From a virus: a DNA stretch of 52,244 bases. This document shows positions 5,585-47,177 of the stretch, one piece after another. Position 1 is the first letter of the stretch, and each line of letters opens with the position of its first letter. The position numbers were made by a program, and so were the translations under genes. The notes below the pieces were generated by a model, which saw nothing but the letters and a program-made list of their open reading frames with translations, was not told the origin of the DNA and did no database searches. The stretch lies in the IMG/VR virus record IMGVR_UViG_3300044210_000063; one strand, given 5' to 3'.

Positions 5585-8500
5585 GTGACACAACCACGCA
5601 AGGAACAGGTTAAGAATCTTAAGACGAAATATAAGAAGTTCGTCCAAGCTGGGAGCCTTTACTTTGGCGGACAGGGGCAGCGCCAGGTAGTGTCTGGTGC
5701 GGATTATGCTGCACTTTTGGCAGCAACACGCACTGGGGTCGCTGGCGGCGCTGAAACTAGTGCACCTGCCGTTGTTTGGGGTGGATATGGGCCATATGCT
5801 GGACTTGCGTCTGGCATGGCTTTTACGATTGCAATGCCAGGCGTCAATGGTGGGCATCCAGTCACAATATCTATCACCCCGAGTGAAATCGTCATACTTG
5901 GAGGTTTGCCAACTGGCACAACCTCTCGTGTCGTACTTAGGATAAACACGGTCCTTTCTGGATATGGTGTGCCTGTTTCAGTTGGTTTGGGTGTGCAAGG
6001 CCAACTCGTACTTAGGTCTGCAAACACTTCTGGTACGACCTATGGGGACTCGGCTCAAATTACGTTAGCAGATTCGGTTCCCGGGACCCTCACGGCGCTC
6101 GGTTTCACGGCAGGTACATATAATGGTACTACCGCCCCGAAGCGGGGACTTATTACTACGAGCGAAGATCTTCTTGGTGGATATCTCCAGATAAAGACCC
6201 TTGATGGTGTGCCAGCTGAGGCCTATTCGAATCAGTTGGTGCATATGTATGCCTACCAGATGGATCCGCTGTATAGGCCTGGACAACCTGCATATGTACG
6301 GGTTAGACAGGCTTCTGCTTCGTCTGCGATCGCTGAATACTGGCGTACGGGACCAACTCCTCCGTCAATCGTGACAGGGCAGGCTGGTCAGATGTCAAAC
6401 TTCTCTTCAATCACCCCAGGGGAGAATATTACAATCTCCATCACGTGGGAGACAGGAGGACCCACTACCAGTTTTAGTGTGGTTTTTGGTACTGTCACTA
6501 GTCTGCAGGATGTTATTAATACGATTAATAACTCTTATTCGTTCACGACTATGGGAGATTATAACGTTAGGTCAACTAACGCGGTCGTGATGTGGAAAGT
6601 GCCTCCGCCATATACCTTCTCCAGTGATGATTCATTTTACATATCGTTTAATGATAACCCAACCAGGGTGCATGTGAATCCTCCGGGTGGAGTATACTCA
6701 GCATTGGCTTTGGATAATTCGGTTGCTCCGGTTGGGTATATTTGGGACCTCATCAATAATGTGTACGGTCTCGGTGCGGAAGGTGGTGTCATCCATTTCG
6801 ATGGTGTTAGTACTAACATCGGTCTTAGCGGATTGTGGATGGCATTCGAGAGTTATAGAAGTGATGGTACTGGCTCTATCACCATTTATCCTGGCGATCA
6901 TAGTGGTGTGCCAAATGGCACTTGGATGGGAACTCTGGAGCGCATAGGACTGACGCCTGGCAGATATGTAGGAAGTATGATTGCTGCCAAGTGGGGTGAT
7001 GGTACTGGCGACGAGATTATATTTTCGCTGCCTACTGCTAGGCCAGGTGCAACGCTGTCAATTACTGGACTCACAGGTACTCTTAATAAACTTGGTCTCG
7101 CTGGGCCAGTTACGGTTTCGTCGAACGCACGAGGTCTGCAACGAGTTCCGGTTCCTACAGGTCAGGTGCTGCTGCCTGAAATGGTTGAATTCTCCGAAGA
7201 ACCGGATAACTATGATGTAGAGGTACAGAGCTTTGACACTCCTGCTACTCCGCCACCCATACTGCCTACTGACGGTGTGCTGAACGCACTTAAGAGTATA
7301 CTTGGAACGGATGGTAAGCTTAATTCAGCGCTGCTACCCTTGATTGGGGAATTTCTGAGCCTTAAAGAACTGAAGCTTGGCGATGGTCTTGTAGGTTCAG
7401 GAGGTCAGCTCAGGCCGCGTGTGCAGACGACACACGATCCAGTCACCGGTCCTGTGCTGTTGCATTCTGCAATGACGAGTATCACTTCTAACGGGAGTGG
7501 TGGCTCTTCTGGTGAGATCGTGCGGGTCTATGCACATAATGGGTGTGCTTGGATCACATCAAATGCTGTTTGCACCGGAATGGTTGGCAGCGTCCCGCAG
7601 TGGCAGGCTGATTATGTAGCGGCCTCCACGATCCTAGAATGGGATCGTGGTAAGATTGCTATTGGATATATTGCGTCTGCGGCTTTGCCACATACATGGG
7701 CGCATACGGGATGGAGTCGCAACCTTAAGATGAATCCATATGGGGCGGCTGAGACGCTATCAAATGGTGCTGTATTTGGAGCGGAAATTCTGAAGCTCGG
7801 TGAAGGTCTTGTTGGTACCGATGCACATGTGCTAATACCACGTATTGAAGCTGCAGCGCCACCTCAGGATTCTAACCGTGAAATGTTGTTGCTTGAGGTG
7901 GCAAGCTCAGATCCAGCAGCACCGGTTCAGGGTATTCGGATTTATGCATATGTATATTCTCCCGCTTATCCAGCAGAGAACCGGTCATATCTCCGTTTTA
8001 CTTTCAATGCAAGGCAGGGCCCTGCCATAGTCTGGCAGAAGGATGTAAATGATAAAATCGCTACATCCGTCAAAATCGGGTTCGATGTTCTACAGGCGGA
8101 AACACGTGCTGCCGCCAATAATGGGACTTGGACTGTATGGGATGAAACCCCTGTAATTCTGGATTGGCGGGGTCATAACTACTATTTCATGTGGGACGCC
8201 CGGATCACCAGGACTCTTATGCTTGGTGAAGAGCTTGCATCAGCAGGTACATACGATGTAGAGCGTTTGGCAACATCGAGAGTTGATCCAGACCTCGGTA
8301 CTACCCGTACTTTAATGTGGCAGTCTCCTACGGTCTGGTCTGGTAGTATAAGTGGCCCAGATACAGTTTGTTCACCGCCGTTGCGCATTTATTTCTGCTG
8401 CAATGCATATGTGAATAACATCCCGGCAAATGGATTTGTGCTCACAAGCAATGCAAGATGGAATGCACATACAGATCGTTGGGAGGCTGACAATGCGCCA

Positions 8501-9145
8501 TATCCGGCATTCGCATGGATGTTTGGACAAACCATTGATCAAATGGGTAGTGGTTCTATAGCACTACTTACCAAAAAGAATACGCCACTGTCTAGTTGGT
8601 CTGATCAGCTTGATTTTGGTGTAACAGGATGGTCTACCGCCGATTGGATGCATCATCCTACATACCCATCTTCCACAATGAGTGGGTTTGTTAGCCAAGA
8701 CGGTGGCTTTACAGTGAAAGCTCCTCAGGCTGGTAATTATTCTTCAAACCCACCTGCAGACTGGCCTGTTGTTTTGAATGCTGTACTTGCCAAGACTATG
8801 GTAAAATCTTGGGGAGCTACCAATCTACCTATACCAGGCATGGGCAGCTCATGTGTCATCAGGGACGGGTATAATTATTACACCGCGTCGGAAATTGGGG
8901 TCGGGTTTTTTCATCTTGGCTATCGCCGTACGCTTGATACTACACCTGAGACTCCTACAGTTCTCCTTACTGTTGGCAACCGCACAGGAGCAGGTGTATA
9001 TGGATCAAGTGCTTCCCCATTTGTGGCCCAAAGTCTAGGTACTGAGTTTACTGCATGTATACTGGATACTGGTGGTGGAGGTGGATTGTTCCTTGATGCT
9101 GTACGGTTAAATCACGTGACCTATAATCAGCAATCCAATAACTGA
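5585..9145 (+). CDS. second very large Gly/Thr/Ser-rich protein (1186 aa); putative virion structural/fiber protein
   Basis: GTG start with AAGGGTG upstream. Internal duplicated motif LKLGDGLVGSGGQL / LKLGEGLVGTDAHVL. Composition similar to the preceding ORF. Confidence 0.8.
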   Translation: MTQPRKEQVKNLKTKYKKFVQAGSLYFGGQGQRQVVSGADYAALLAATRTGVAGGAETSAPAVVWGGYGPYAGLASGMAFTIAMPGVNGGHPVTISITPSEIVILGGLPTGTTSRVVLRINTVLSGYGVPVSVGLGVQGQLVLRSANTSGTTYGDSAQITLADSVPGTLTALGFTAGTYNGTTAPKRGLITTSEDLLGGYLQIKTLDGVPAEAYSNQLVHMYAYQMDPLYRPGQPAYVRVRQASASSAIAEYWRTGPTPPSIVTGQAGQMSNFSSITPGENITISITWETGGPTTSFSVVFGTVTSLQDVINTINNSYSFTTMGDYNVRSTNAVVMWKVPPPYTFSSDDSFYISFNDNPTRVHVNPPGGVYSALALDNSVAPVGYIWDLINNVYGLGAEGGVIHFDGVSTNIGLSGLWMAFESYRSDGTGSITIYPGDHSGVPNGTWMGTLERIGLTPGRYVGSMIAAKWGDGTGDEIIFSLPTARPGATLSITGLTGTLNKLGLAGPVTVSSNARGLQRVPVPTGQVLLPEMVEFSEEPDNYDVEVQSFDTPATPPPILPTDGVLNALKSILGTDGKLNSALLPLIGEFLSLKELKLGDGLVGSGGQLRPRVQTTHDPVTGPVLLHSAMTSITSNGSGGSSGEIVRVYAHNGCAWITSNAVCTGMVGSVPQWQADYVAASTILEWDRGKIAIGYIASAALPHTWAHTGWSRNLKMNPYGAAETLSNGAVFGAEILKLGEGLVGTDAHVLIPRIEAAAPPQDSNREMLLLEVASSDPAAPVQGIRIYAYVYSPAYPAENRSYLRFTFNARQGPAIVWQKDVNDKIATSVKIGFDVLQAETRAAANNGTWTVWDETPVILDWRGHNYYFMWDARITRTLMLGEELASAGTYDVERLATSRVDPDLGTTRTLMWQSPTVWSGSISGPDTVCSPPLRIYFCCNAYVNNIPANGFVLTSNARWNAHTDRWEADNAPYPAFAWMFGQTIDQMGSGSIALLTKKNTPLSSWSDQLDFGVTGWSTADWMHHPTYPSSTMSGFVSQDGGFTVKAPQAGNYSSNPPADWPVVLNAVLAKTMVKSWGATNLPIPGMGSSCVIRDGYNYYTASEIGVGFFHLGYRRTLDTTPETPTVLLTVGNRTGAGVYGSSASPFVAQSLGTEFTACILDTGGGGGLFLDAVRLNHVTYNQQSNN

Positions 9146-20261: not shown

Positions 20262-20891
20262 TTGGTTGAGATTCGTACTGAAATGCAGGAATGGATCCGA
20301 CGGCGCGTTGATGAAGTACGTAGTCGGTACACAGCGTATGACTGTTTGGTAGAACACGGGCATAGCGAACAACTAGCGGATCCAGATACAGCAGTTCAGA
20401 TGTTCTGCCCAGTTCATTCCAACGTCAATACGATGGCGGCTCGGTATTATCCCTCAACCGGAAATAGGCCCGCGCACGTGCATTGTTGGAGTTGCCGGGA
20501 GAGCTGGGATGGGATCGCTCTCTACATGAAGTTCACGAATCAGCGGTTCATGGATGCACTTGTGGCACTTGAACGACGGCTGGGCGTGAAGGTTCCTAAG
20601 CGTCCTGATCCACCACCAATAGCAGATCCAGTCCAGCGTACATCCGGATATATATCCGAGCGATGGAGTGACATTGCGGCAGTGCTTTCCATCATGGAAG
20701 GTAAACTCAGTAGAGTCAGAGACAAATGTGCTATGAGTGATTATGTGAAGTTCTGTAGAGTCATAGATGCTGTGACTTTTGACTTCGACAAAACACACAT
20801 AGCAACCGAGGAAATGGCTCGGGCCCTGGCTAGAACAATGGTTCTCATGGATGAGGCTATGATTTATCCTGATTTCGGACTTGAGATATAA
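20262..20891 (+). CDS. hypothetical protein (209 aa)
   Basis: TTG start in the ORF track; Cys/His cluster HVHCWSCRESW; no family recognised. Confidence 0.5.
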   Translation: MVEIRTEMQEWIRRRVDEVRSRYTAYDCLVEHGHSEQLADPDTAVQMFCPVHSNVNTMAARYYPSTGNRPAHVHCWSCRESWDGIALYMKFTNQRFMDALVALERRLGVKVPKRPDPPPIADPVQRTSGYISERWSDIAAVLSIMEGKLSRVRDKCAMSDYVKFCRVIDAVTFDFDKTHIATEEMARALARTMVLMDEAMIYPDFGLEI

Positions 20892-20915
20892 CATGCAACT
20901 GGAGGAATACTTTTA

Positions 20916-21419
20916 GTGAGGCCGAAGCGTCGAAAGACAGAAGTTTCGGCTGTGCCGCTGTTTGAACCTATAGTTCCAGTGGAATATGAGCTCACGCTGT
21001 CCGACGGACAGCGTATGGCAATATCCGAGCTTGACACTGAATTAATACCAGCGGTGCATCTAGTTAGGGGGGCGCTGGAATCTTTTATTTCCAGATGTGC
21101 TTCTCTTACTCGGTTTGAGGTCGAAGAGGCAAAGCGTGGATATGACAAGATGCTGCGACAGGCACTGCGCTCTCCGATGGCTGGACTTGCCCGGGCTGAA
21201 CCACCGGTATGTAGGCTACGTGAAGAGTGCATCATGTTTAGTGCGCAGAAATGCACACTTCGGAATAGCTCGATCAAAGGTGGTTCATTTCCGTTCTGCT
21301 GGGAATATGATGCTTCCAGGGCGTTAGGGCCGTTACAGGGGGCTGCGATAGCTTTAGGAACCGCACTTGGACAGGCCTGGCGGATAGGTAGGTATGTAGT
21401 TCTAATCAAGGCTAAGTGA
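20916..21419 (+). CDS. hypothetical protein (167 aa)
   Basis: ORF with GGAGGAATA upstream; no family recognised. Confidence 0.5.
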   Translation: MRPKRRKTEVSAVPLFEPIVPVEYELTLSDGQRMAISELDTELIPAVHLVRGALESFISRCASLTRFEVEEAKRGYDKMLRQALRSPMAGLARAEPPVCRLREECIMFSAQKCTLRNSSIKGGSFPFCWEYDASRALGPLQGAAIALGTALGQAWRIGRYVVLIKAK

Positions 21420-21616
21420 TGTTTGGAGAGAAGATAATTGATAAGCAGCTGTTGAGCAATCGGATTTCCATGTCTTCTTCTGGGAGCGCCGTAAGGGCAG
21501 TAGATTTTAATCTAGCCTATTGGTGCTCTCGGTGCGGACAGGCGATCTTTTATAGTATCGAGCATGATCAAAAAGACTGCGACCTTGGTGTGATAGTATT
21601 TGTGACAGAAGCATAG
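21416..21616 (+). CDS. small hypothetical protein (66 aa, CxxC pair)
   Basis: Fills the gap before the convergent dnaJ gene; weak support. Confidence 0.3.
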   Translation: MMFGEKIIDKQLLSNRISMSSSGSAVRAVDFNLAYWCSRCGQAIFYSIEHDQKDCDLGVIVFVTEA

Positions 21617-21617
21617 C

Positions 21618-22658
21618 TTATTGTGTTCGGGTCTCGAGCTCTTCCACGAGTTCGTCCAGCAGCTTCTTCGCACGGGAAGTCATCGTTTTTGGTAATGCCA
21701 CTGTGATCACAATGCGTACATCTCCGCACTGACCGCCCGTGGTGGGGCGTACTCCCTGGCCTGAGATGCACATTTCGTCGCCTGGTTGTGTACCAGGTGG
21801 GATCTCGATGGTAAGACCTCGTCCATTAGGTAGCGATACTTCGAGCGGGCCTCCGATAATCGCGTGTTGTAGACTAACACATCTGGTTGTAATAAGGTCT
21901 TGGCCAAGTCGTGACCATGCAGAGTGGTTCGATGCTTCACGAATTTTCACTGTAATATAAAGATTTCCAGGTGGCTGTCCTGGAACGCCCATTCCTGCAA
22001 GACGTAATCTGGTACCATCGACGATGCCAACCGGCACTGTGACTATGACTTCGCGTTCGAACTTACACATTCCGGTACCATTGCATGACTGGCATGACTT
22101 TGTTCTTTGTTTGAAGCTATCACATAATGCGCATATCTTAGCATTATGACCATAACCTCCACAGGTATTACACGTTGTTGCTTGGCCACCAAACATACGG
22201 CCAGTTCCAGCACATTGTAAACAACGAATTTTCTTGTTCGATTGTACCTGCATTTGTTTTTTACAACCGGTGACCGATTCCTCAACAGTAATGTTGAGCT
22301 GGGCTTCTATATCATCGTCAGTCTGTGTCACTGGGCGGGCGGAATAGTTATTACGCCTGCGAAACATATCAGCAATCGGATCTCTATGTCGAAACACAGT
22401 GTCGAACAGATCGTCTTGAAGTCCCCAAAATTTTCGGGATTCATGTATGGCATTCGTTCTATCGAATATATGCCGTTTACCTGGATCAGTTAGAAGAAGA
22501 TAGGCTTCTTGCGCTTCTTTGAATCGTTTTTCTGCATCAGGATCATCCGGATTTCTGTCTGGGTGATGCTTTATTGCAGCCTGCCGCCAGGCACGTTTGA
22601 CTTCCTCGTTAGAAGCACCTCGGCTGATACCGAGCACTTCATATGGGTCCTTAGTCAT
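21618..22658 (-). CDS. dnaJ: DnaJ (Hsp40) type I co-chaperone: J-domain, CxxCxGxG zinc finger, C-terminal domains
   Basis: N-terminus DPYEVLGISRGAS...HPDRNP...KRFKEAQEAYLLLTD. Zinc-finger repeats CLQCAGTG, CNTCGGYG, CQSCNGTG. C-terminal beta domains. Confidence 0.9.
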   Translation of the reverse strand: MTKDPYEVLGISRGASNEEVKRAWRQAAIKHHPDRNPDDPDAEKRFKEAQEAYLLLTDPGKRHIFDRTNAIHESRKFWGLQDDLFDTVFRHRDPIADMFRRRNNYSARPVTQTDDDIEAQLNITVEESVTGCKKQMQVQSNKKIRCLQCAGTGRMFGGQATTCNTCGGYGHNAKICALCDSFKQRTKSCQSCNGTGMCKFEREVIVTVPVGIVDGTRLRLAGMGVPGQPPGNLYITVKIREASNHSAWSRLGQDLITTRCVSLQHAIIGGPLEVSLPNGRGLTIEIPPGTQPGDEMCISGQGVRPTTGGQCGDVRIVITVALPKTMTSRAKKLLDELVEELETRTQ

Positions 22659-22695
22659 AAGGTGATGGTACAGCCTATCGGTAGAAACTTCCGAC

Positions 22696-24150
22696 TTGGG
22701 TTTGGTGTATTATCAAAATACAATAGTGAGATTTGAGACTGGTTCACCGTATCATGGTTTCGTATACCAGGGGCCTCCGATAGACATAGGTCCGAGGGCT
22801 ATGCGGAAACTGCTATTCAGATGCCAGTGTGGCAAGGATAAGGAACTATATATCGGGGCAATTACCAAGGGAATGCAAAAAACATGCGGGGACTGCCGGA
22901 AGGTATGGGTGCGTCCGGGTGATCAATATCACCGGTTCATTTATGCAGGAGAAGCCTCATATCTGGCTCCCAACAGCTCTAAAAAGGCATTGTTCAAATG
23001 CCAATGCGGCAAGGTCAAATCAATCAGAATAAACAGTGTTACTAAAGAGCAAACTACCAGATGCGGCGCGTGCAACTTAGTGAAGCTTGATCCGGAGGAT
23101 CAATATTATTCTTTTGTCTATATAGGAGAACCAATACGAGTTCACGCGCATGGTACTTCTCGGCTGATGTTTCGGTGTCGATGCGGTAAGACTGTCACAT
23201 TGCGTATGAACGAGGTGACTTCTGGCCATCGAGTTTCGTGCGGGCACTGCAATGATTTTGTGCTGGACTATGGTGATAAATATTGTGGGTTCGTGTATGC
23301 GGGCAAACGAATTATAGTTTCGCCACGTAGCCACCAGCAACTCGATTTCAGGTGTAAATGCGGCACTATCAAGAAGATCAAGCTATGGGAGATATCTGAC
23401 GGAATAACTCGCACTTGCGGTCGTTGTAGCTATATTCAGTTGGATCCAGGCCAGTCATACTGTGGGTTCGTATATATCGGAAAACCAATCTGGCTCAGTA
23501 AATGGAGCCACCAACGGCTTTTGTTCCGGTGTAAATGTGGACAGCCCAAAAGCATCATGTTGTCGAGTTTGACGTCCGGCAATACAAAGACATGCGGTGC
23601 ATGTCGTGGAACAGTATATGAATGGTATGTTAAGAATCGTGAAATGTTGGAAGCTATGCGTGCTCCAATTACTTTGGATAGTCTGCCTCAAGGTGGAGTA
23701 ATATTCACTTCACCTATTACGAACATCGCTAAATCTACGCCTGCAATCTGTCCGGCATGCGGTGCATCTTACAAGCCAAGATTTAGCGATGTTCGTCGTG
23801 GACGATCACTGACTTGTGGGTGTGTATATAATAGAATATCATCCTATAACTATGAGATTGCTAGTCTTGTAGCTTCAGTCGGGTTCAGAGTCATGATGGA
23901 GTTTAAGCTTGGCAAGTATTCATATGATATACATGTGGAAGAGACCCCCATCCTTATTGAATATGATGGAAAGAAATGGCATGATACGCAATATGCTGCC
24001 GATCTTGATCTGCGCAAGTCAAAATTGGCAGCTGAGCATGGATATGAATTGATTCGGATTACAGAGGCTGATTGGCGGGACCATCCCGCAGAAACACAGA
24101 CTCATATTTTAAAGGTACTGTCACAGTATGCTGCTCCAACAACTGGATGA
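22696..24150 (+). CDS. paralog A of a mobile-looking family: 5 tandem Cys4 zinc-ribbon modules + Zn-ribbon + Vsr/DUF559-like PD-(D/E)xK endonuclease domain
   Basis: Five ~60-aa repeats F(R/K)CxCG-x12-VT(S/K)G-x3-(T/S)CGxC-...-FVY(A/I)G. Then CPACG...LTCGC and YDIHVEETPILIEYDGKKWHD...DLRKSKL...GYELIRI. Its 3' end overlaps the polA start by 23 nt. Confidence 0.8.
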   Translation: MGLVYYQNTIVRFETGSPYHGFVYQGPPIDIGPRAMRKLLFRCQCGKDKELYIGAITKGMQKTCGDCRKVWVRPGDQYHRFIYAGEASYLAPNSSKKALFKCQCGKVKSIRINSVTKEQTTRCGACNLVKLDPEDQYYSFVYIGEPIRVHAHGTSRLMFRCRCGKTVTLRMNEVTSGHRVSCGHCNDFVLDYGDKYCGFVYAGKRIIVSPRSHQQLDFRCKCGTIKKIKLWEISDGITRTCGRCSYIQLDPGQSYCGFVYIGKPIWLSKWSHQRLLFRCKCGQPKSIMLSSLTSGNTKTCGACRGTVYEWYVKNREMLEAMRAPITLDSLPQGGVIFTSPITNIAKSTPAICPACGASYKPRFSDVRRGRSLTCGCVYNRISSYNYEIASLVASVGFRVMMEFKLGKYSYDIHVEETPILIEYDGKKWHDTQYAADLDLRKSKLAAEHGYELIRITEADWRDHPAETQTHILKVLSQYAAPTTG

Positions 24151-26989
24151 CCGTAAGGACATCATCCGAGATTGGATGGTGGATTATAAATTCCACCTAG
24201 TTCAGACCGTTCTTCAGCTGAAGAAGCTGGTGGATTATTGCATACAACGAGGACTTTATGCCCTCGATCTCGAGACTACTGGAGTTGACAATCGAGTCTA
24301 CCAAGACGAATATTTTGAAGACGGTATCATAACTCGTCATGGTATAAGGACCATTGATAGAGTGGTTGGGGTCTGTCTATCATTCGACGGGACAAATGGA
24401 TATTATGTCCCGCTTTCTCATGAACCGGACGATTCTGGAAATTTGCCATGGGATGAATCTTGGGATGAGATCCAGAGGTTGGTGTGGAGCCAAGCACGTG
24501 CAATCTTCCATAATGCTAAGTTTGACTGCGAGTTCCTTTACCCTCTGACAAATAAGGACTTCTGGAAGAAGAATGAATATGAGGATACCTATCTTATGTC
24601 TAAGGTATCCTCACCGCTTAAAAGCCAGCCCAACGGTCTTAAGCCTCTATCCAAATTGCACTTCGGCATTGATATGATTGAGTTAGACGATCTTTTCTGT
24701 CCGGAGATGAAGATCCAACTCAAGCGTGAGAAGCAAGGATATAACTTTGGAGTACTTCATCCGCGAGAAGGTCTTGAATATGGGTGCTCAGACGGTATTT
24801 TTACTTATAAGTTATATTCAGTCCTGCGTGAAAAATTATCAGACACTGATCTACCTATTTACGATTTAGAAAAATCTTTCTGCAACATATTGCGTAAGTT
24901 AGAACGTAACCAGGTGCATGTTGATGTGGAGCGCCTAAATCAACTTGAGGTTGAGTGTCGCGCGGAATTGCAGCGTGTCGGTGATGTCATTCGTGGGATG
25001 ATTGAGAAGCGTAGTCATAACACTGGTAAATGGCTGACGCTCAATGTTGGATCTGTTCAGCAGTTATCATCAGCACTTATTACAGATCCTGAGGGTCTGA
25101 AGCTCAAGCCGACAGCAGAGATGATCGCAGAGGCAGGAGGAACTGGCGAATGGGATAGCGGCGGCGGTGGTGGTGGTGGTGGTGACGATGACGATGAAGA
25201 TGGGGATGAGGAGGAGAAAAAGAAATACTCGTTGAAAGATGAAGCTCTGAAATCTTTGCATCGAGCATATGCTGATCGTCTATCGGTGCAACGCCCTGGT
25301 GTTGTAGACAAAGATGGAAAACCAAAGCTAGATAGTCTTTTTGAACTCGTACTTGAATACCGACATTACGAGAAGATGCTCGGGTCGTTTTTAACAAAGT
25401 TATCGCGAGCTGTAGATCGGTATGGGAATGTACGACCAAATTTCAACCAAATGGGGACAGATACCGCGAGACTCTCGTCAAGGGCTGGCAAGATTGAGGA
25501 TGGATATTCTGGTATCAATTTTCAAGGAATCCCACGGGATTCCGATGAGGATAAACCAGAATTATTCAAGCAAATCAGGACGGTAATAATTCCGCGCGAT
25601 GGTTGGATACTGGTAAAGCTTGACTTCGCTGGCGAGGAACTTCGTGTTGTTACTAATCTTTCGGGTGATCCGATCTGGACAGATTCATTCTTGAACAAAG
25701 ATGGTGACGTGCATTCAATTACAGCACGTACACTGTTCGGCAAGGATGAAGTTAATAAAGACGAGCGTAATCGCGGTAAACGCTGCAATTTCGCGTTTAT
25801 TTATGGTGGGGGTGCAGGCGCGATTCAGCGCAACGTTGGTTGTTCCATTGAAGACGCCGGTAGGCACATGGAGAATCTGCGACAGGCTGTACCCGTGCTA
25901 ATGGGGTATGTTGATCATCAGAAGAGATTCGCGCATAAACATAAGTGCATTTTTACAGCTTATGGTCGGCGTGTTCCCATTCCAATGATAGATTCGCCAA
26001 TACGCGCCTTGCGTTCTAAGGCGGAGCGGTGCGCTATTAATTACACAATCCAGTCAACCTCTGCAGACGTCTTGAAATACGCAATGTGTTTTGTTGATAA
26101 GAACATCCGGGCTCTAGGCTGGGAGGACCGGGTTCGATATGTGCTAACCGTACATGATGAGGTTGTATATGAGGTTCGACCGGAATACCTCATGGAGATT
26201 GTACGTAAGCTTGATGAATGGATGACCTTTCCATGGAAGCTTCCGAAGCCACATGGCCGCGACTGGGTGGTGCCGCTTCTCACCGAGCCCGGGATTGATT
26301 GTAACTGGAAGGCTCGCTATGACTATTTCGAGATGGTGGACGGCACGCCAGTGAAGCCATCGGAGATTGGCCCAGATGGGGAGTACAAGGGTAAGCTCAA
26401 GAAGGGCCGCTACTTTGCCGATGGGCGCATCTACCAGGAGCCTCCGGACTTCCTGAAGCCGTGGATCCACCGCCTTCGGCCCCTTTCGGCCGGTCCTGAG
26501 CCTGCTCTTCCGTCCCATGAATCGCTTCCGGCTGAGCCCGGAGCCGCTGTCTTGCCTGATTTGCCGCCTTCCAAACCCGCAGAACACGGCTCATCTGGTC
26601 CGATCGATGAAGCCCCGCTCAGTAAACTCTTGCCAGCGGAGCCTATCCTTGGCTCCCTGAGCACTCTGTCGCTCTCCACGGATCCGCCCCCGCCGCTCCC
26701 CCCGCCGCTCCCCCCGCCGCTCCCCCCGCCGGCCTCTCCGCAGCCAAAAAAGGTGCAGGACAATGCCGTTACGAATACTTCGGGTGAGACCGTCTTACGC
26801 TGGACCATCCGGTCCGTGCTGAACGACATGGCGATTCGCAAGCTCAAGGCCGCGTGCCTGTTAGCACCGGGCAACATGTCGTTGCGCGTGGTACTGCCCG
26901 ATGGTAGCGTCCTCATTCAGGAGAAGAGCATGCCGTTGGTCGACAAGGATTGCTTTCTCTCGTATGCACGCTTATTGGGTATCGGGTGA
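24128..26989 (+). CDS. polA: family-A DNA polymerase with N-terminal 3'-5' proofreading exonuclease, acidic/poly-Gly insertion and Pro-rich C-terminal extension
   Basis: Exo I YALDLETTG. Motif B RGKRCNFAFIYGGGAGAI. Motif C LTVHDEVVYEV. Insertion DSGGGGGGGGDDDDEDGDEEEKKK. About 270 aa follow motif C, including (PPLP)x3. Confidence 0.9.
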   Translation: MLLQQLDDRKDIIRDWMVDYKFHLVQTVLQLKKLVDYCIQRGLYALDLETTGVDNRVYQDEYFEDGIITRHGIRTIDRVVGVCLSFDGTNGYYVPLSHEPDDSGNLPWDESWDEIQRLVWSQARAIFHNAKFDCEFLYPLTNKDFWKKNEYEDTYLMSKVSSPLKSQPNGLKPLSKLHFGIDMIELDDLFCPEMKIQLKREKQGYNFGVLHPREGLEYGCSDGIFTYKLYSVLREKLSDTDLPIYDLEKSFCNILRKLERNQVHVDVERLNQLEVECRAELQRVGDVIRGMIEKRSHNTGKWLTLNVGSVQQLSSALITDPEGLKLKPTAEMIAEAGGTGEWDSGGGGGGGGDDDDEDGDEEEKKKYSLKDEALKSLHRAYADRLSVQRPGVVDKDGKPKLDSLFELVLEYRHYEKMLGSFLTKLSRAVDRYGNVRPNFNQMGTDTARLSSRAGKIEDGYSGINFQGIPRDSDEDKPELFKQIRTVIIPRDGWILVKLDFAGEELRVVTNLSGDPIWTDSFLNKDGDVHSITARTLFGKDEVNKDERNRGKRCNFAFIYGGGAGAIQRNVGCSIEDAGRHMENLRQAVPVLMGYVDHQKRFAHKHKCIFTAYGRRVPIPMIDSPIRALRSKAERCAINYTIQSTSADVLKYAMCFVDKNIRALGWEDRVRYVLTVHDEVVYEVRPEYLMEIVRKLDEWMTFPWKLPKPHGRDWVVPLLTEPGIDCNWKARYDYFEMVDGTPVKPSEIGPDGEYKGKLKKGRYFADGRIYQEPPDFLKPWIHRLRPLSAGPEPALPSHESLPAEPGAAVLPDLPPSKPAEHGSSGPIDEAPLSKLLPAEPILGSLSTLSLSTDPPPPLPPPLPPPLPPPASPQPKKVQDNAVTNTSGETVLRWTIRSVLNDMAIRKLKAACLLAPGNMSLRVVLPDGSVLIQEKSMPLVDKDCFLSYARLLGIG
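26690..26725 (+). repeat. 12-bp x3 repeat CCGCCGCTCCCC encoding (PPLP)3 in the polA C-terminal extension
   Basis: Seen directly, in frame. Confidence 0.8.
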
Positions 26990-28767
26990 AGCTGTTCGTT
27001 GTTAAAGGGGATAGGGCAGGGAGCCTGACATATGCGGGTGACAGGTCGGAGCTTAGCACGTGCAGCCTTAAGAAAGACCTGTTCCGGTGCGCATGCGGCA
27101 CGGTGAAACTTTTCCGTACTGCATATGCATACTCTGGCAGGAGCAAGACTTGCGGCGAGTGCCATGCACGGCCCGCCGAATGGTGGGATCGCAAGTTCGG
27201 CAGTCTCAGGCTGGCTGTTCCAGTCAAACTTCACGAGTTTTCAAACAAAAGAAAAGATTTTCGGTGCGACTGCGGCAGAGTATTGGCGCTCAGAGTAAGC
27301 CATGTTACGTCCGGACTGCAGCGGACGTGCGGCTGCTGCCAGCTCATGGGAGCGTCTTGGTGGGAAGCCAGCGTCTTCGGCCAGCTCCGGTTGGCTGTTC
27401 CTGAGGATTTGCACGTTGGGTCCAATCAAAAGAAACAATTCCTCTGCAGTTGCGGGCGAGTCAAACGGCTGCCGGTATATGCAGTGGTCGCGGGCCGCGT
27501 GAAGACCTGCGGCGAGTGTAATGTGAAACCCGCCGAATGGTGGAAAGGCAGAGTATTCGGTCGCCTATCAATAAACCAGCCCGAGCCACTGACTTTTGGA
27601 TCCCATGAACGCCGCATGTTCCAGTGCGGCTGCGGGAATCAGTGCATAGCACGGGTGAACTTGGTTACAAGCGGCAAAAAGCTGTCCTGCGGGAGGTGTC
27701 GGGACCAGGTGCATGGTTGGTACCAAGACAACCTTTCCAAGTTGGCTGCTATGCGGTTCCCCATAGCTCCGCAGGACATGCCGATCGGCGGTCCGAGGCC
27801 GCTGGAAACGATTTTAAACAGAAGGAGCCCGTTCCGGGCTGTGTGCCCCATATGTCAGTCCGAGTATGCGCCTCGGTGGGAGTTTATCAAGAGAGGAATA
27901 TCACTTACATGTGGATGTGCTGGCGGGGTCTCGTCGACCCAGAATCGGGAGGTGGCCGGGTTCATCCGTCAGCTTGGGGTTGATCTAGTTACGGAATATC
28001 CGGTCGGGAACAAGCGGTTCGACATATTCGTGCCGTCCTGCAATCTATTGATTGAGTTGCAAGGGTTGCACTGGCATTCCCAGATCGGAGCGCGGCAGCG
28101 AGACCGAGAGAAGTATGGGGTGGCTGTACAGGCTGGGTATCAGTTCATGGCCTTCTTTGAAGATGAGTGGAGACATGCGCCGGAGAAGGTGAAGGCTTTG
28201 ATTCACAACCGGCTGGGTTTAGTTCACAGCATCAAGCTGCGTCCCCCTCAGTGCGGGATCCACCCGGTCCCCTCACCGGAGGCCGATCCCTTTTACGACA
28301 GGTTCCACTACATAGGGCCCTGCAGGCCCAAGGTCTCCTATGGGGCTTTTCTCCGGGATCGCCTGGTGGCTTGTATCTCCTTCTCCCACCCGACCAGGCA
28401 GTCCAGGCACCCATGGGAATTGGTAAGGATGGCTTCAGATCCGGAGTATAGGGTCCATGGGATCTGGAGCAAGCTTCTGAAGATTTTCTGCACTGAGTAC
28501 AGACCGGAATCCATAGTCTCGTTCTCGGATAACCGCCTTTTTTCAGGTGGAGTCTATGAAAGAATAGGCTTCTCCTACGATGGGGACGTTCCTCCGGATT
28601 ACTACTGGGTGAAGGGACAACGCAGGTTCCACAAGTCCGGCCTCAGGAAGAAGGGAGAGGAGAGGGTTTCCGGGCTCACCGAGGCCCAGCTCAGAGAAGC
28701 TCAGGGGTACCGGAAGATATGGGACCTTGGGAAGAAGAGATGGGTTTTTCGTTGGGCTGACGATTAG
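26950..28767 (+). CDS. paralog B: 4 zinc-ribbon modules + Vsr-like nuclease + C-terminal GNAT-like domain
   Basis: Repeats FRCACG...TCGEC etc. RFDIFVPSCNLLIELQGLHWHS. C-terminus LVRMASDPEYRVHGIWSKLL...FSDNRLFSGGVYERIGF resembles GNAT motifs A/B. The whole gene is GC-rich relative to the background. Start uncertain; the ORF-track TTG overlaps polA by 40 nt. Confidence 0.8.
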   Translation: MLSLVCTLIGYRVKLFVVKGDRAGSLTYAGDRSELSTCSLKKDLFRCACGTVKLFRTAYAYSGRSKTCGECHARPAEWWDRKFGSLRLAVPVKLHEFSNKRKDFRCDCGRVLALRVSHVTSGLQRTCGCCQLMGASWWEASVFGQLRLAVPEDLHVGSNQKKQFLCSCGRVKRLPVYAVVAGRVKTCGECNVKPAEWWKGRVFGRLSINQPEPLTFGSHERRMFQCGCGNQCIARVNLVTSGKKLSCGRCRDQVHGWYQDNLSKLAAMRFPIAPQDMPIGGPRPLETILNRRSPFRAVCPICQSEYAPRWEFIKRGISLTCGCAGGVSSTQNREVAGFIRQLGVDLVTEYPVGNKRFDIFVPSCNLLIELQGLHWHSQIGARQRDREKYGVAVQAGYQFMAFFEDEWRHAPEKVKALIHNRLGLVHSIKLRPPQCGIHPVPSPEADPFYDRFHYIGPCRPKVSYGAFLRDRLVACISFSHPTRQSRHPWELVRMASDPEYRVHGIWSKLLKIFCTEYRPESIVSFSDNRLFSGGVYERIGFSYDGDVPPDYYWVKGQRRFHKSGLRKKGEERVSGLTEAQLREAQGYRKIWDLGKKRWVFRWADD

Positions 28768-29048
28768 CCGTGGCTCTGCCCGGTGCCTGGGCGGACAGTC
28801 GTGGCTGCCTCCAGCTGGCGCTCGAAGTCATTAGCCGCTTGTTCATATCCAGCCGCTGCTGCTACTAGTACGGCCAGACCGTGCTGCACTATAGCTTGTT
28901 GTTCCTCATCCAAACTTTTGCTCAGTAGCAGATGTCGCTCACGAACAATAAGGTCGTGTATCCCCTCGCAAATTTGCCGGGCTCCAAGCCCCTTTGCCAC
29001 AAGCAGAATGTCGCATTTCAGTTCTTCAGGCAGTTCGAACTCATTCAT
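28764..29048 (-). CDS. small hypothetical protein (94 aa)
   Basis: Occupies the gap between paralog B and the dCTP deaminase. The alternative + strand reading here is low-complexity and not credible. Confidence 0.4.
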   Translation of the reverse strand: MNEFELPEELKCDILLVAKGLGARQICEGIHDLIVRERHLLLSKSLDEEQQAIVQHGLAVLVAAAAGYEQAANDFERQLEAATTVRPGTGQSHG

Positions 29049-29093
29049 TAATTATAAGACACAGTACTTTTCGAGAGTGGGTGTAAAGTTGGA

Positions 29094-29763
29094 AATGCAA
29101 TACGGCGTACTCTCTGGCAGTGAAATTCTTCGGACCATCAAGACTGGCGAAATAGTAATTGATCCGTTTGAAGTAGACAACATCAAGTACGAAGATCGTA
29201 TCAACTCTGCATCATACGACCTGACCCTTGGTCCACATGTGGCGGTGTATTCATCCGTAGTAACTGCTGACTGGGGATGTCGTATAGGCGGTGTGCCTGG
29301 TGAGCGTGTACGCGTGGACTGTCAGCATTTGAAGCTTCCACCGGTGCCCTGTCTTGATGCAGCACAGGAAAATCCTGTGGAGCGTTATGAAATGGATAGT
29401 CGTGGGTTCATGCTTATGCCAGGCATAGGTTACTTAATGCACACAGTTGAACGTATTGCTACAAACAAATATATTCCGATTATCGATGGTAAATCATCAA
29501 TTGGTAGGCTTTTTTGCTTTGTACATGTAACGGCGGGTCTTGGTGATCCTGGGTTTGACGGCCAGTATACGTTGGAGGTATTGGTTACGCATCCACTAAT
29601 CGTATACCCAGGCATGCGATTCTGCCAGATTCGGTTTTTTACTATTGTTGGGGAGGCACAAAATTACCAAAAGGCTGGACATTATACAGGCAAACTTGCT
29701 ATAGGCCCAGTCCCATCGCGCTCATGGACACAATTTTCAGTGCATGAAAATAATCACAAATGA
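29094..29763 (+). CDS. dcd: dCTP deaminase (dUTPase-fold)
   Basis: GKSSIGRLFCFVHVTAGLGDPGFDGQYTLEVL matches E. coli Dcd [31 protein letters not shown]. The ORF-track start 28783 adds about 100 aa of Ala/Ser/Cys-rich sequence, judged spurious; ATG 29094 gives 223 aa. Confidence 0.8.
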
Positions 29764-30110
29764 TTCAATGTGATTTCCCAGAATGTGAAGCTGAGGCTGA
29801 CTGTATGTTGATTTTACATACTCCAGCTGGAATATACCCAACTGGAGTATACCCAGCTGGAGTATGCCCAGCTGGGTATTCAGCATCTTCAAATAGACAA
29901 ATAACGCGGGCAATAGCTCGACATACGGAATCTTGGCTTCCACACGAGATCATATTTGTTCGCTGTGTTGCTCATGAAAACCCAATACTTCCGGGAACAC
30001 CGCTAACTAAAGCTCTGACATCAATACCCTTCCACCTTAGTAAATTGACTCTTGCTATGGGAATGAAAATTTACGGGACCCAATTGGCTAAGGAGGTTCA
30101 TGACACCTGA
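29760..30110 (+). CDS. hypothetical protein with PAG(I/V)YP tandem repeat
   Basis: ATGA overlap with dcd; 15-bp x4 in-frame repeat at 29823-29882. Confidence 0.5.
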   Translation: MIQCDFPECEAEADCMLILHTPAGIYPTGVYPAGVCPAGYSASSNRQITRAIARHTESWLPHEIIFVRCVAHENPILPGTPLTKALTSIPFHLSKLTLAMGMKIYGTQLAKEVHDT

Positions 30111-36722: not shown

Positions 36723-36968
36723 CTATTTTCTGTGAACGGTCTTGACTACTTCTTCACGAATACGCTCAAGACCAAGTATTTCCGGGAAAGATAGTGAATT
36801 GCTTTGGATGCCATTAGCATGTTGGATCACTAACTTGTCGCCGGGTGACAGTCCTAGGCGAGTAAGAAGCCGCGCAATCAGAACCTCTTCGTCGATATAA
36901 GGACTATCCCACGGAGTGAACTTCAACGATTCGTTGTGTTGATTGGCTTCTTGACTTGAAATTTTCAC
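36723..36968 (-). CDS. hypothetical protein (81 aa)
   Basis: ATGA-coupled downstream of paralog C. Confidence 0.45.
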   Translation of the reverse strand: MKISSQEANQHNESLKFTPWDSPYIDEEVLIARLLTRLGLSPGDKLVIQHANGIQSNSLSFPEILGLERIREEVVKTVHRK

Positions 36969-38563
36969 AGCTTTGAGTTTCTTTTTTGAAGGAGCCTTGT
37001 TACTAATGGGCCGCCATAATACCCAGCAAGGGCACGGGTTTCGACGATTTTAGCTTTTTCGCTAACTACCCTTATTAAATCAATATCAGTGGTGTAGGCC
37101 AGAATAACAGCGTAAATCAAGCTATCGGCGATTTCGGACTCAATGGCGGCTTTCTTCGCTTCAACCGTGTCACCGTTCCGAATGGCTCGCAGTAGTGCAC
37201 CAGCAAGTTCGCCCGATTCACCGACGAGGCCTAAGGCATAATAAATGAATGGGTCGTTACCATATGCCGCGTCAGGATCCATATTTTTGACTCGACATAT
37301 AACATGGTGCGCATTGATAGCTGCAGTAACAATATCTTCGTAGGAGTGTCTTAGTTCGTGGATTAAGGCATCTCGCCGCTTTATTAATGCTGCCTCGGTT
37401 TCTTCTGGCAGGCTGATTTGCATGATTTCGCTGATTTCATCCAGTTTTGCCCTGAGTTCTGCCTTAGTTCGATAGCTTCGGCCGATTCGTTTTCGTGTGT
37501 CTAGCTCCAACAGGAGGCTCTGCATAACGCTTTTTTTATTATGTATCCAGTCGTTTTCCTCTATGGTGAGGAATTTCAGCCCACTCACTTCGGCCAAGAA
37601 CCGCTTCTTAGTGTTCCGCCTTCGCGCGTCGTTGGACCGGTTGAACTCGATAAGCGTTTGAGACTCGTTGACGAACATGTCATATTTATGTCCGTAGAGC
37701 TTGTGCTCAAATACCACTGAGTAGCCATGCGCAATAAGCTGGTCAGCGATGCGATAGCATGGTATGGGTATTTGGTAATCCGCACAGCCGCACGTCAGCC
37801 CATGGCCTCCTTTGAGCCTGCTGATGGACGGTGTGTAAATACTACCACAAATAGGACATTTTGCCTTGAATCCCTTTGAATTTGTTAATATGCGTCCGAG
37901 CGGAATTGGTCCACCGGGAGGGAAGTTTTTGGGCTCAACTGGTGCCCGTAACGCCTGCAGCGCTTGCCGATTCTTATTATACCAATTTCGCACTGTTCGA
38001 GAGCAATGTCCACAATTGCGGGTACGTCCGGAGGTCACTGACTGAATCGATATTTCTTTCTTGCTGCCGCAGTCACACAGAAACATCGTCTTTTGTTTAG
38101 CGTGGCGATTGAGAGCACGGGGTGTTTCCAGCCGAAGGCATCCAAACCGCTGACTAGTCCACCATTCTGGATCCATCTCGTTGCATCTGCCGCATGTCAC
38201 AATTTTGTTGTGTACTACGTCGTAGATGGCTATTAGTTGCTCTTTACCACAATCACAAACAAACAGTTCTCTATCTTTACTGCCAGTACTTAACTGTTTC
38301 GGATGCCTGAGTCGCAGTTGACCGAACTTCTGTGTGATCCACCACTCCTTTGGCATTATACTGCATTGTCCACATGACTTGGTTTGGCCACGGGTGACAG
38401 ACGACACTTGCACGGTTTTATGCTTGCCACATTCGCAGACAAACACATGCTTTGCATGCGAATGTGGATTTAAATCCACTGGATGCAAAATGCGCAGCTT
38501 GCCAAACTTCTGTAGCGCCCACCACTCCTTGGAGTGAACTGTAGCACGCTCTCTAATAGTCAT
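36965..38563 (-). CDS. paralog C: 3 zinc-ribbon modules + Vsr-like nuclease + C-terminal MazG-like NTP pyrophosphohydrolase domain
   Basis: Repeats FVCECGKHKT...SCGQC etc. YDMFVNESQTLIEFNRSNDARRR. C-terminus ALGLVGESGELAGAL...ESEIADSLIYAVILAY is MazG-like and replaces the GNAT-like domain of paralogs B, D and E. Confidence 0.8.
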   Translation of the reverse strand: MTIRERATVHSKEWWALQKFGKLRILHPVDLNPHSHAKHVFVCECGKHKTVQVSSVTRGQTKSCGQCSIMPKEWWITQKFGQLRLRHPKQLSTGSKDRELFVCDCGKEQLIAIYDVVHNKIVTCGRCNEMDPEWWTSQRFGCLRLETPRALNRHAKQKTMFLCDCGSKKEISIQSVTSGRTRNCGHCSRTVRNWYNKNRQALQALRAPVEPKNFPPGGPIPLGRILTNSKGFKAKCPICGSIYTPSISRLKGGHGLTCGCADYQIPIPCYRIADQLIAHGYSVVFEHKLYGHKYDMFVNESQTLIEFNRSNDARRRNTKKRFLAEVSGLKFLTIEENDWIHNKKSVMQSLLLELDTRKRIGRSYRTKAELRAKLDEISEIMQISLPEETEAALIKRRDALIHELRHSYEDIVTAAINAHHVICRVKNMDPDAAYGNDPFIYYALGLVGESGELAGALLRAIRNGDTVEAKKAAIESEIADSLIYAVILAYTTDIDLIRVVSEKAKIVETRALAGYYGGPLVTRLLQKRNSKL

Positions 38564-45827: not shown

Positions 45828-47177
45828 TTATTCAATTAGTTCCAAATTGGAACTAAGGGATGATTCGTCTATCCCCATGGTTTCTGCTGGAACTACTTCG
45901 GGCGGTTCTGAAGAACCATAATCCTGATCCATAGCATCGTCTGTGTTTCCACCTGCGACGGACATGGCATCTTCAGCCAGCTCGGCTAACTCTTCATCGC
46001 TTATATAGCGCAGCCCCTTAAGAATGTGTTCGACGCATAGATTACTGAGCTCTGCATATACTTTCGGCTGTGCTACCATGGCAGCTCGGAACTTCTCAAT
46101 GCCGATGGTTTCGATTTCTCCGGCACTGGAATGGAACCGAAATATATCTTGTTTCTTAGCATTCTTACTTTTCTTCACAATGTCGTATGCGATGGCTACG
46201 TTTAGCATTGTACGTAGCTCATCAATACCCACCCCATAGCGAATTGTGATAAGCCCAGAATGCCCGGTGCGTGCATCAATTTTATTTTTAATATTTTTGA
46301 TTTCCACATCCGTAGCAATCGGCACTTCTTCGTAATCTCTAGTGAGCGGGTTCCACCGTTTGGCTTTAACAGTCTGTTTTGGCTTCAACAAGACACGGTT
46401 CGATGACCAGAACTTCAGCGCGTTGCCGCCAGTAGTCGTCTTAAGGGCCTCTTCACTGAACCCAATAGCCCCAATTTTATCACGTGTTTGATTAAGAAAC
46501 ATCACGTGAGTACCGGTGTTCGATATGATGGATTGGAGCTTCGGCATCCAATTGGACATGAACCGTGGAACCTCAGCAATGCCTTGTTTTTCCTTCTCAT
46601 TCAAGACATTGCGTTCCCCTTCCCTCTTTGGTTGCAGACCTGCGACTGAATCGATTACTATAAAATTTATGCCTTGGATCGCCGCAGCATTCACGATTGC
46701 CTCGACTTCTTCGGCAAATCTAGGTGCTACACGGATAGCTCGTCCAGTTCCACCAAGTTCTGGTGGACGAAAGTCCGCTCCGAGTCGCATCGCATAAGCA
46801 TCAACAACTGCATGCTCGAGGTCAACGTATAATCCGGTTCCAGTTTCATTATTTGCTTGGAGTGCATGTCCAAGACCCATAAGCGCGATAGTAGATTTGC
46901 CTGAAGACTCACGGCCATAAATCTCGCTGATACGCCCGCACGGCCATCCGGGGCAGACGAATGATCCATCATCAAGCCTTGTTCCGCCGATGAGGAGATT
47001 TAGTACAGTCGAGCCAGTATTAATATACCCCAGGTTGCGATTCCATTCGACAACCGTATCCCGTAGGTTCAGGCGTTTCTCCAGGGTTGTTAGGAACCCT
47101 GCCATCTTCGGATGCCACTTGATTGGAGTGCTTTTTGACATGATTGATACTACACCAGACCCATCTCGTCTTTCCAA
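45828..47177 (-). CDS. recA: RecA/UvsX-like recombinase (divergent)
   Basis: GRISEIYGRESSGKSTIALM (compare GRIVEIYGPESSGKTTL), FIVIDSVAGL, TTGGNALKFWSS, NKIDARTG. The annotated 5' end overlaps paralog D by ~157 nt; the true start is probably an internal Met (47141 or 47105). Confidence 0.85.
   Translation of the reverse strand: MERRDGSGVVSIMSKSTPIKWHPKMAGFLTTLEKRLNLRDTVVEWNRNLGYINTGSTVLNLLIGGTRLDDGSFVCPGWPCGRISEIYGRESSGKSTIALMGLGHALQANNETGTGLYVDLEHAVVDAYAMRLGADFRPPELGGTGRAIRVAPRFAEEVEAIVNAAAIQGINFIVIDSVAGLQPKREGERNVLNEKEKQGIAEVPRFMSNWMPKLQSIISNTGTHVMFLNQTRDKIGAIGFSEEALKTTTGGNALKFWSSNRVLLKPKQTVKAKRWNPLTRDYEEVPIATDVEIKNIKNKIDARTGHSGLITIRYGVGIDELRTMLNVAIAYDIVKKSKNAKKQDIFRFHSSAGEIETIGIEKFRAAMVAQPKVYAELSNLCVEHILKGLRYISDEELAELAEDAMSVAGGNTDDAMDQDYGSSEPPEVVPAETMGIDESSLSSNLELIE
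45836..45856. promoter_or_regulatory. perfect palindrome TTAGTTCCAA-A-TTGGAACTAA (10-bp arms, 1-nt centre) at the recA 3' end, upstream of the ATPase gene
   Basis: Seen directly. The 1-nt spacer rules out a stable hairpin, so a dimeric protein-binding site is more likely. Confidence 0.35.

Follow-up and report, generated by a model that had tools for sequence, protein, structure and literature searches.

Tandem four-cysteine modules joined to Vsr-type nucleases in a jumbo-phage-like genome: probable free-standing homing endonucleases with a NUMOD-like array

The viral DNA of IMG/VR record IMGVR_UViG_3300044210_000063, a stretch of 52,244 nucleotides that was analysed as a whole and is here called the window, encodes a protein (paralog A) in which five consecutive cysteine-rich modules precede a nuclease domain, while three further proteins (paralogs B, C and D) carry shorter runs of the same module. 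The question raised by this locus is what such arrays do, an earlier note on the same DNA having proposed that each module reads a segment of DNA, as in zinc-finger or transcription activator-like effector (TALE) arrays, and that changes in module number and sequence retarget the nuclease behind them. The modules most likely constitute a nuclease-associated, modular DNA-binding front end, and we consider it probable, at roughly 0.7, that A, B and D are free-standing homing endonucleases of the EDxHD/Vsr (Hef-like) type equipped with a NUMOD-like array, with C representing a nuclease-dead, domesticated derivative that is fused to a MazG-like domain.

A six-frame scan of the whole window for the pattern C-x-C-[GN]-x(10-22)-C-x-x-C found it in tandem in exactly four open reading frames (ORFs), with five copies in A, four in B and three each in C and D, the very numbers that the earlier note had read. 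The modules abut with a period of 59-60 amino acids (aa) and share the cysteine pattern C-x-C-G...C-G-x-C, and the four cysteines, which that note had taken to be conserved ligands, are retained in all 15 of the 15 window modules. With regard to the scaffold motifs it described, the VTxG turn (as [VIL]-[TVSL]-x-G) is present in 13 of the 15, but the FVYxG hairpin is restricted to paralog A and the first module of B, the remaining modules having F-G-x-L-R at the same place. The position it gave for the array of A, 22790-23640, is essentially right when set against the limits measured here (Table 1). The tandem modules it described stand, but a sixth zinc-type element of truncated form (CxxC-x17-CGC) had been overlooked; in each of the four paralogs this element follows the array at a distance of approximately 45 residues, immediately ahead of the nuclease, and matches the Cys-knuckle half of the module profile only. 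Applied to independent homologues, a profile derived from the 15 modules of the window gives 25-76 bits for each module, and the recurrence of the module greatly exceeds what chance would produce. The net charge of the arrays, +28 for A and +25, +16 and +8 for the others, marks them as strongly basic. Tandem Repeats Finder detected no tandem repeat at the DNA level, while the modules inside A are 33-55% identical in aa sequence and share 20-34% with modules of the other paralogs. The lack of a DNA-level repeat, coupled with this degree of identity within A, indicates that the modules are old and diverged, and the higher identity within A than between paralogs indicates that the repeats were expanded or homogenised separately in each lineage.

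The AlphaFold2 model of full-length A represents the protein alone, without DNA, and the arrangement of its parts was judged by the predicted local distance difference test (pLDDT) and the predicted template modelling score (pTM). The full-length protein reached a pLDDT of 90.5 and a pTM of 0.48, each module being modelled with high confidence as five strands and one helix, and a single module, for which 67 others served as the alignment, reached 91.2 and 0.71, respectively. A high pLDDT combined with a low full-length pTM points to independent domains with no confidently fixed mutual arrangement, and the pTM of 0.48 for the full length as against 0.71 for the single module speaks against the packing into one globular domain that the earlier note had named as the contrary case. 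As far as such a model tells, the modules may form a regular superhelix. Pfam DUF4379 is matched by 37 of 68 modules at E ≤ 1; against the DUF4379 cut-off of 24.5 bits, D lies above with 49.7 bits (4.3e-13), while A (15) and its second module (21.3) lie below. Judged by these profile scores the modules are probably divergent DUF4379 domains, and their four cysteines are invariant in 106 modules, with one gap at the last Cys. Pfam CapR was not matched at E ≤ 1 by any of the 68 modules or by any of the four proteins. A profile of the 68 modules has matches in 14,943 representative proteins when E ≤ 1e-3 is required, of which 1,888 remain at E ≤ 1e-10, and the number of copies per protein ranges from 2 to 11 in the best 150 of the 14,943 matches. 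When 50,697 phage records were searched by tblastn, the A array had one marginal match and the D array two. One of the two cultured-phage matches to the D array, at 2468-3250 of L031, is gp051 of Bacillus phage vB_BceM_WH1, a protein of 260 aa encoded directly after dnaB that has no Pfam match at E ≤ 0.01 and is apparently devoid of a nuclease domain.

All four paralogs match Pfam MTES_1575/DUF559, a family with the Vsr-like restriction endonuclease (REase) fold, as well as PHROGs 559 and 374, while A, B and D also match PHROG 3339; these PHROG families are named HNH or homing endonuclease. The best match of the A model in the PDB is the catalytic domain of I-Bth0305I (3r3p; Foldseek target TM 0.80, E 3.6e-4), followed by E. 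coli Vsr (1vsr/1cw0), and a PDB sequence search with a profile built on 30 family members recovers 3r3p (E 1.4e-7). A search of the PDB with the single sequence of A returned nothing significant, and NCBIfam gave only a weak match to a ProA nuclease domain. I-Bth0305I is the only characterised EDxHD enzyme, with its specificity residing mainly at the nuclease domains, and its residues D196, H213 and D222 have been tested by mutation (PMC3239194). In an alignment to this enzyme the equivalents of D196, E206, H213 and D222 are kept in A, B and D. In paralog C, a deletion of 5 aa removes the segment G..WH including the catalytic His, and the D222 equivalent is Asn; its orthologue in the related contig L003 likewise lacks the His and has Gly in place of D196. 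Owing to the loss of the catalytic His and Asp, C is predicted to be nuclease-dead, so that an array feeding a C-terminal nuclease, as the earlier note pictured it, applies to A, B and D, where the catalytic residues of the Vsr/EDxHD domain are kept, but not to C.

The coupling of array and nuclease extends well beyond the window. Among 174 module proteins, 104 carry a Vsr-like nuclease C-terminal to the array and 66 of those a GNAT domain as well, the array preceding the Vsr nuclease in 104 of 106 cases. In 49 longer proteins without a Vsr-like nuclease, the recognisable nuclease partners are GIY-YIG, HNH, LAGLIDADG, EndoVII and phage endonuclease I domains, and the other partners comprise NUMOD1, the I-TevI DNA-binding domain, the I-HmuI NUMOD-like domain, AP2, HTH_3 and Mom; in one protein (P0036) a GIY-YIG nuclease is followed by six modules. 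The strongest evidence that the module binds DNA comes from its fusion to nucleases of many classes as well as to genuine DNA-binding modules, and such promiscuous fusion is the argument by which the NUMODs were originally defined. Some members of the family are array-only or regulator-like: P0052 (740 aa), P0135 (895 aa) and P0100 (891 aa) have about ten near-identical CxCxCxCG...SCGH modules and no recognisable nuclease, and P0135 ends in HTH_3.

While the position of the nuclease behind the array had been given correctly in the earlier note, the Mom-like GNAT domain that follows it in B and D had gone unmentioned. The isolated C-terminal domain of B matches Pfam Mom (PF25680) at E 9.4e-5 with 22.6 bits, the gathering cut-off being 27.1; that of D gave no Pfam Mom match, and the sequence of the GNAT domain returned nothing from the PDB. 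Two close homologues, P0017 (27.7 bits) and P0007 (31.5 bits), pass the cut-off. Residues ~290-600 of B, corresponding to nuclease and GNAT domain, match proteins annotated as 'Hef-like homing endonuclease' with 25-33% identity (CP30A 2e-35, AR9 8e-28) in the Campylobacter phages CP30A/CP81, the Bacillus phages AR9/PBS1 and Klebsiella phages, these being multi-copy genes that occur at 8-11 places in the Campylobacter phage records listed. Hef of phage U5 has been described as an endonuclease acting on the nrdB gene, which it cleaves (PMC2988022). The unit of nuclease and GNAT domain is what cultured-phage records name Hef-like, so that a domain for DNA modification may be part of Hef-like enzymes. 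Over 522 aa, B and D share 47% identity, and B has a guanine-cytosine (GC) content of 0.558 throughout, higher than in the window (0.478) and in the other paralogs (0.45-0.485), which suggests that B was recently acquired from a genome of higher GC. Paralog C carries a MazG-like C-terminal domain and adjoins a gene for a YfbR-like 5'-deoxynucleotidase, and the L003 orthologue (6741-7991 of that contig) is also a MazG-like fusion, with two modules only and without the terminal zinc element. C looks like a binder derived from a homing endonuclease gene (HEG) that has been domesticated and attached to a nucleotide-pool enzyme, namely a MazG-like pyrophosphatase.

Comparison with about 18 uncultured jumbo-phage contigs (130-436 kb), which are syntenic with the window at ~50-70% protein identity, showed that A, B and D are present or absent at otherwise syntenic junctions, as is typical of mobile elements; a megablast search with positions 20000-30000 against the 50,697 phage records gave no match. 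Paralog A lies between the divergent dnaJ and the DNA polymerase A (pol) gene, and its stop overlaps the start of pol at 24128. Of 19 related phages, the window among them, 5 have an A-type gene at this junction (besides the window, L001/L002, L003, L004 and L021), and at all six such loci, from five phages, the gene encodes five modules and a nuclease. The same junction in L011 and L020 (3483-4997, minus strand) holds a different Vsr-Mom gene on the opposite strand and without zinc modules, the L011 protein matching Mom at 2.5e-23, while 11 of the 19 have no module-bearing ORF there and L019 is ambiguous. Empty junctions that were read base by base (L012, L007 and L008) have ~35-80 bp between the two start codons. 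On a neighbour-joining tree of pol, drawn without bootstrap, genomes with the A-type gene are interspersed with empty-site genomes, and the nearest relative of the window, L012, has an empty site. Paralog B, which follows pol, is absent from that position in every relative examined, and L013 holds a GIY-YIG/NUMOD3 gene (about 8090-8845) at this junction. D is the gene immediately upstream of recA; in L003 the interval from recA to the adjoining gene lacks it, and L006/L016 have a four-module, B/D-like gene after dnaB. The position of C beside the YfbR-like gene is conserved in L003 and L005, as expected of a domesticated derivative. An intron-encoded origin was considered and rejected, as Rfam intron and tRNA scans of the window were empty; a scan for promoters and terminators gave nothing above shuffled sequence. 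Patchy, junction-specific presence beside replication and recombination genes, at sites that other nuclease families also use, is characteristic of free-standing HEGs, and the genes mark recombination hot spots on both flanks of pol and beside recA in this uncultured jumbo-phage clade. Other HEG classes occur at the same or neighbouring junctions, among them a LAGLIDADG-like gene after the SNF2 helicase gene in L001 (3700-4515).

Alignment of the 106 modules defined a conserved scaffold (F12, G13, L15, P20, S27, K29, K30, W/F33, C35, C37, G38, V48, G51, S55, C56, G57 and C59) and entropy peaks at positions 19, 22, 24, 28, 32, 42, 44, 46, 47, 52 and 58. In 43 recently duplicated module pairs (same protein, at least 55% identical) the N-terminal half is nearly invariant, whereas positions 28, 42, 44, 46, 47, 52, 54 and 58 differ in 74-91% of the pairs; these are alternate residues of the strand past the first Cys pair, the start of the helix and residues around the second Cys pair. 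The constant scaffold with varying intervening positions that had been described from the window is thereby borne out, with a few hypervariable positions mapped. Variation of module number and sequence between copies, likewise anticipated, is seen as different arrays at different sites, while orthologues at the same site keep five modules and show positional orthology: in four same-site A orthologues with called proteins each module is closest to the module at the same array position, the positional identities between A and P0001 being 66, 47, 43, 51 and 55%. Positions 26, 28, 44, 50 and 53 are module-specific yet conserved across the same-site orthologues. Such module-specific identity at each array position is compatible with separate sub-sites.

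If A, B and D are homing endonucleases, their basic modules, each folded by itself, would line up on the DNA beside the cleavage site, the array would fix the length of the footprint and contribute affinity and some site preference, and the Vsr-type domain would cut, probably as a dimer as in I-Bth0305I; module number would change through duplication and loss, and the exposed positions between the Cys pairs would vary fastest. A number of points weigh against this interpretation. That the array proteins bind zinc and DNA, cleave it and home is something that we infer, and owing to the lack of a CapR match the link to a domain with experimentally established DNA binding rests on a statement of remote homology in PMC12350094. 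The hypervariable set shows 0.23 identity between orthologous modules and 0.12 between non-orthologous ones, and the fast variation is mostly explained equally well by unconstrained surface residues. Furthermore, same-site A orthologues are 43-51% identical as compared to 61% for pol, which also fits long residence or a host-beneficial role. Derivation of a target site from HEG-bearing and HEG-free junctions was considered and set aside, as the divergence of the relatives (about 60% aa) is too great for the site or clean insertion boundaries to be made out.

The interpretations that compete with it differ chiefly in what they assign to the array. In the strong form of the original proposal, the modules would make up a third class of programmable DNA readers in nature, each contacting its own short sub-site through the exposed residues between the Cys pairs (~28, 42, 44, 46, 47, 52, 54 and 58), which we hold to be unlikely; if it were true, arrays of 2-11 modules could be recombined to retarget Vsr, GIY-YIG, HNH or LAGLIDADG nucleases, the Mom-type modifier of B and D, or the MazG-like enzyme of C. 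It is somewhat easier to envisage, though still doubtful, that the arrays are non-specific clamps or spacers which set a length on the DNA, with specificity confined to a dimeric nuclease domain and the modules playing no part in retargeting. This would resemble I-Bth0305I, in which the central 14 bp at the nuclease domains hold most of the specificity and the N-terminal contacts are largely non-specific within a ~60 bp footprint (PMC3239194), and it agrees with arrays that are simply very basic and with fast-varying positions that are little conserved even between same-site orthologues (the 0.23 and 0.12 above). A mere clamp fits less well with the module-specific positions (26, 28, 44, 50 and 53) conserved across orthologues of a shared insertion site, or with the five modules kept at all six same-site loci despite 43-51% overall identity, and the contrast in duplicated modules between an invariant N-terminal half and eight fast positions is sharper than general surface drift suggests. 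That the modules are instead protein-interaction, RNA-binding or purely structural zinc domains is highly improbable: about one third of the sampled module proteins have no recognisable partner domain, but nucleases or DNA-binding domains make up most of the partners that are recognised, the arrays have a strongly basic character, and the array stands ahead of the Vsr nuclease with great regularity (104 of 106).

A further alternative concerns the biological role of the whole protein, namely that B, D and perhaps A are single-chain conflict systems in which the GNAT domain modifies phage adenines, the nuclease attacks unmodified DNA of the host or of a competitor phage, and the array guides the two to particular sequences. 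Such a role is compatible with homing, the two not being mutually exclusive, and has in its favour the Mom match of B (9.4e-5), the homologues P0007 and P0017 that pass the Mom gathering score, the strong match of the L011 protein (2.5e-23) and the joint occurrence of nuclease and GNAT domain in 66 of the 174 module proteins. Exactly this was proposed for jumbo-phage Mom proteins fused to REase-fold nucleases by Iyer et al. 2021 (PMC7824862), and Mom of phage Mu has now been shown to modify double-stranded DNA (PMC13219725). We nevertheless think it improbable as the main function, as A and its orthologues have no Mom-like domain, B stays below the Mom threshold (22.6 as against 27.1 bits) and D has no Mom match, while the unit of nuclease and GNAT domain is named a Hef-like homing endonuclease in the databases, Hef itself being described as a homing endonuclease. 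The patchy, junction-specific distribution beside conserved replication genes is, moreover, the classical pattern of free-standing homing.

The homing endonuclease interpretation has a close precedent in HEGs carried by group II and group I introns of phages, which encode three to five ~60 aa domains resembling CapR, DUF4379 and DUF723, followed by an EDxHD/Vsr-like nuclease (PMC12350094, NAR 2025); the domains were proposed there to be NUMOD-like DNA binders, and thousands of unannotated relatives were remarked upon. Compared by description, the window proteins have the same tandem Cys-rich domains of ~60 aa and the same ~100 aa Vsr-like nuclease; they differ in being free-standing rather than intron-encoded and, for B, D and C, in carrying additional Mom-like or MazG domains. 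I-Bth0305I shares with them the nuclease fold, the catalytic residues, an N-terminal DNA-binding region ahead of a C-terminal nuclease and a phage origin, and D adjoins recA, the gene invaded by I-Bth0305I, whereas the N-terminal region of that enzyme has two NUMOD2/helix-turn-helix motifs and no zinc modules, and the gene of the enzyme lies within a group I intron (PMC3239194). The Hef-like phage proteins match nuclease and GNAT domain of B only, the similarity stopping short of the zinc-module array. DUF4379, a probable treble-clef zinc finger, typically occurs in tandem and fused to Vsr-like nucleases, as in the window proteins; the window modules differ from it in an additional N-terminal beta-hairpin (F-G-x-L or F-V-Y-x-G) and in the C-x-C-G...C-G-x-C spacing. 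NUMODs and the corresponding regions of I-TevI and I-HmuI are likewise small modules that have been shuffled among nuclease classes and form extended DNA-binding regions, and in one protein (P0149) the module co-occurs with NUMOD1, the I-TevI DNA-binding domain and the I-HmuI NUMOD-like domain; this likeness is a functional analogy only and implies no membership by sequence or fold.

CapR of the Vibrio cholerae PLE satellite is a four-Cys domain from the N-termini of phage HEGs in which Cys-to-Ser mutations abolish DNA binding (PMC8096241), and it is a distant relative of the modules according to PMC12350094. As is predicted for C, CapR is a HEG-derived binder without nuclease activity; it differs in its CxxC-24/26-CxC pattern, an order that among the window paralogs only the terminal zinc element shows (CxxC...CxC with a 17-aa spacer), and in having T5orf172/GIY-YIG-type domains as partners. 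Arrays of C2H2 zinc fingers and TALE repeats resemble the window arrays in their tandem modules, variable copy number and conserved scaffold with few fast-varying positions, but the window modules have an unrelated fold of ~60 aa, and a fixed base-per-module register, a rigid superhelix and a code are not evidenced for them. B and D also resemble the REase-Mom fusions of PMC7824862 in combining a REase-fold nuclease with a Mom-family GNAT in several copies in a jumbo-phage-like genome; those fusions are read as restriction-modification-like rather than homing, and N-terminal zinc-module arrays are not mentioned in the available text of that paper. The architecture and the idea of DNA binding (PMC12350094) and the jumbo-phage REase-Mom fusions (PMC7824862) are thus already published. 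What the window mainly adds is a set of well-documented free-standing members of the homing endonuclease group outlined in 2025, with four copies per genome, different module numbers and conservation of five modules at the same site, together with a map of variable positions, the breadth of nuclease partners and a dead-nuclease MazG derivative. Should DNA binding proceed module by module, the arrays would represent a compact, widespread and uncharacterised scaffold for sequence recognition, for which the four paralogs of one genome (5, 4, 3 and 3 modules), five-module orthologues at one site and a nuclease-dead derivative provide a natural comparison set.

Table 1. Positions of the four module-bearing genes in the window and of the domains they encode
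Feature	Position	Strand	Remarks
Paralog A	22696-24150	+	484 aa; five modules, truncated zinc element, Vsr/EDxHD nuclease
A array	22723-23607	+	m1 22723-22902, m2 22900-23076, m3 23077-23256, m4 23257-23430, m5 23434-23607
A truncated terminal zinc element	23749-23823	+	CPACGASYKPRFSDVRRGRSLTCGC
A Vsr/EDxHD-type nuclease domain	23842-24123	+	equivalents of I-Bth0305I D196, E206, H213, D222
Paralog B	26950-28767	+	605 aa; four modules 26992-27705
B terminal zinc element	27844-27918	+	
B nuclease	27946-28215	+	
B Mom-like GNAT domain	about 28258-28686	+	
Paralog C	36965-38563	-	532 aa; three modules 38000-38536
C terminal zinc element	37784-37858	-	
C degenerate nuclease-like domain	37508-37753	-	no catalytic His; D222 equivalent is Asn
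C MazG-like domain	about 37034-37249	-	
Paralog D	47020-48723	-	567 aa; three modules 48199-48711
D terminal zinc element	47986-48060	-	
D nuclease	47689-47955	-	
D Mom-like GNAT domain	about 47134-47667	-	

Several neighbouring genes of the replication module merit a brief description. DNA polymerase A (24128-26989) has an internal poly-Gly/Asp/Glu insert, GGGGGGGGDDDDEDGDEEEKKK, and a hypervariable Pro/Ser-rich linker (GC 0.60-0.65) that is followed by a conserved C-terminal domain of ~70 aa common to all relatives. Co-conversion of the GC-rich 3' end of pol with B was considered and rejected, as the relatives have the same Pro-rich linker. DnaB (13854-16727, plus strand) is 957 aa long as compared to about 516-522 aa in the relatives, and contains an intein (Intein_splicing) with a LAGLIDADG_3 endonuclease, which is another mobile element in the replication module. 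An ORF of 865 aa at 16879-19476 (plus strand) matches Pfam MVP_shoulder (6.9e-28) and the Vault_3 repeat (4.7e-9) and represents a major-vault-protein-like phage gene; neither this ORF nor the next (19577-20212) occurs in the interval from dnaB to the primase zinc-ribbon gene of L001 and L005, and in L006 a four-module HEG occupies that slot. Lastly, the related jumbo-phage contig L004 harbours an IS605 OrfB/TnpB gene (Cas12f-like TNB) at 10956-12368.

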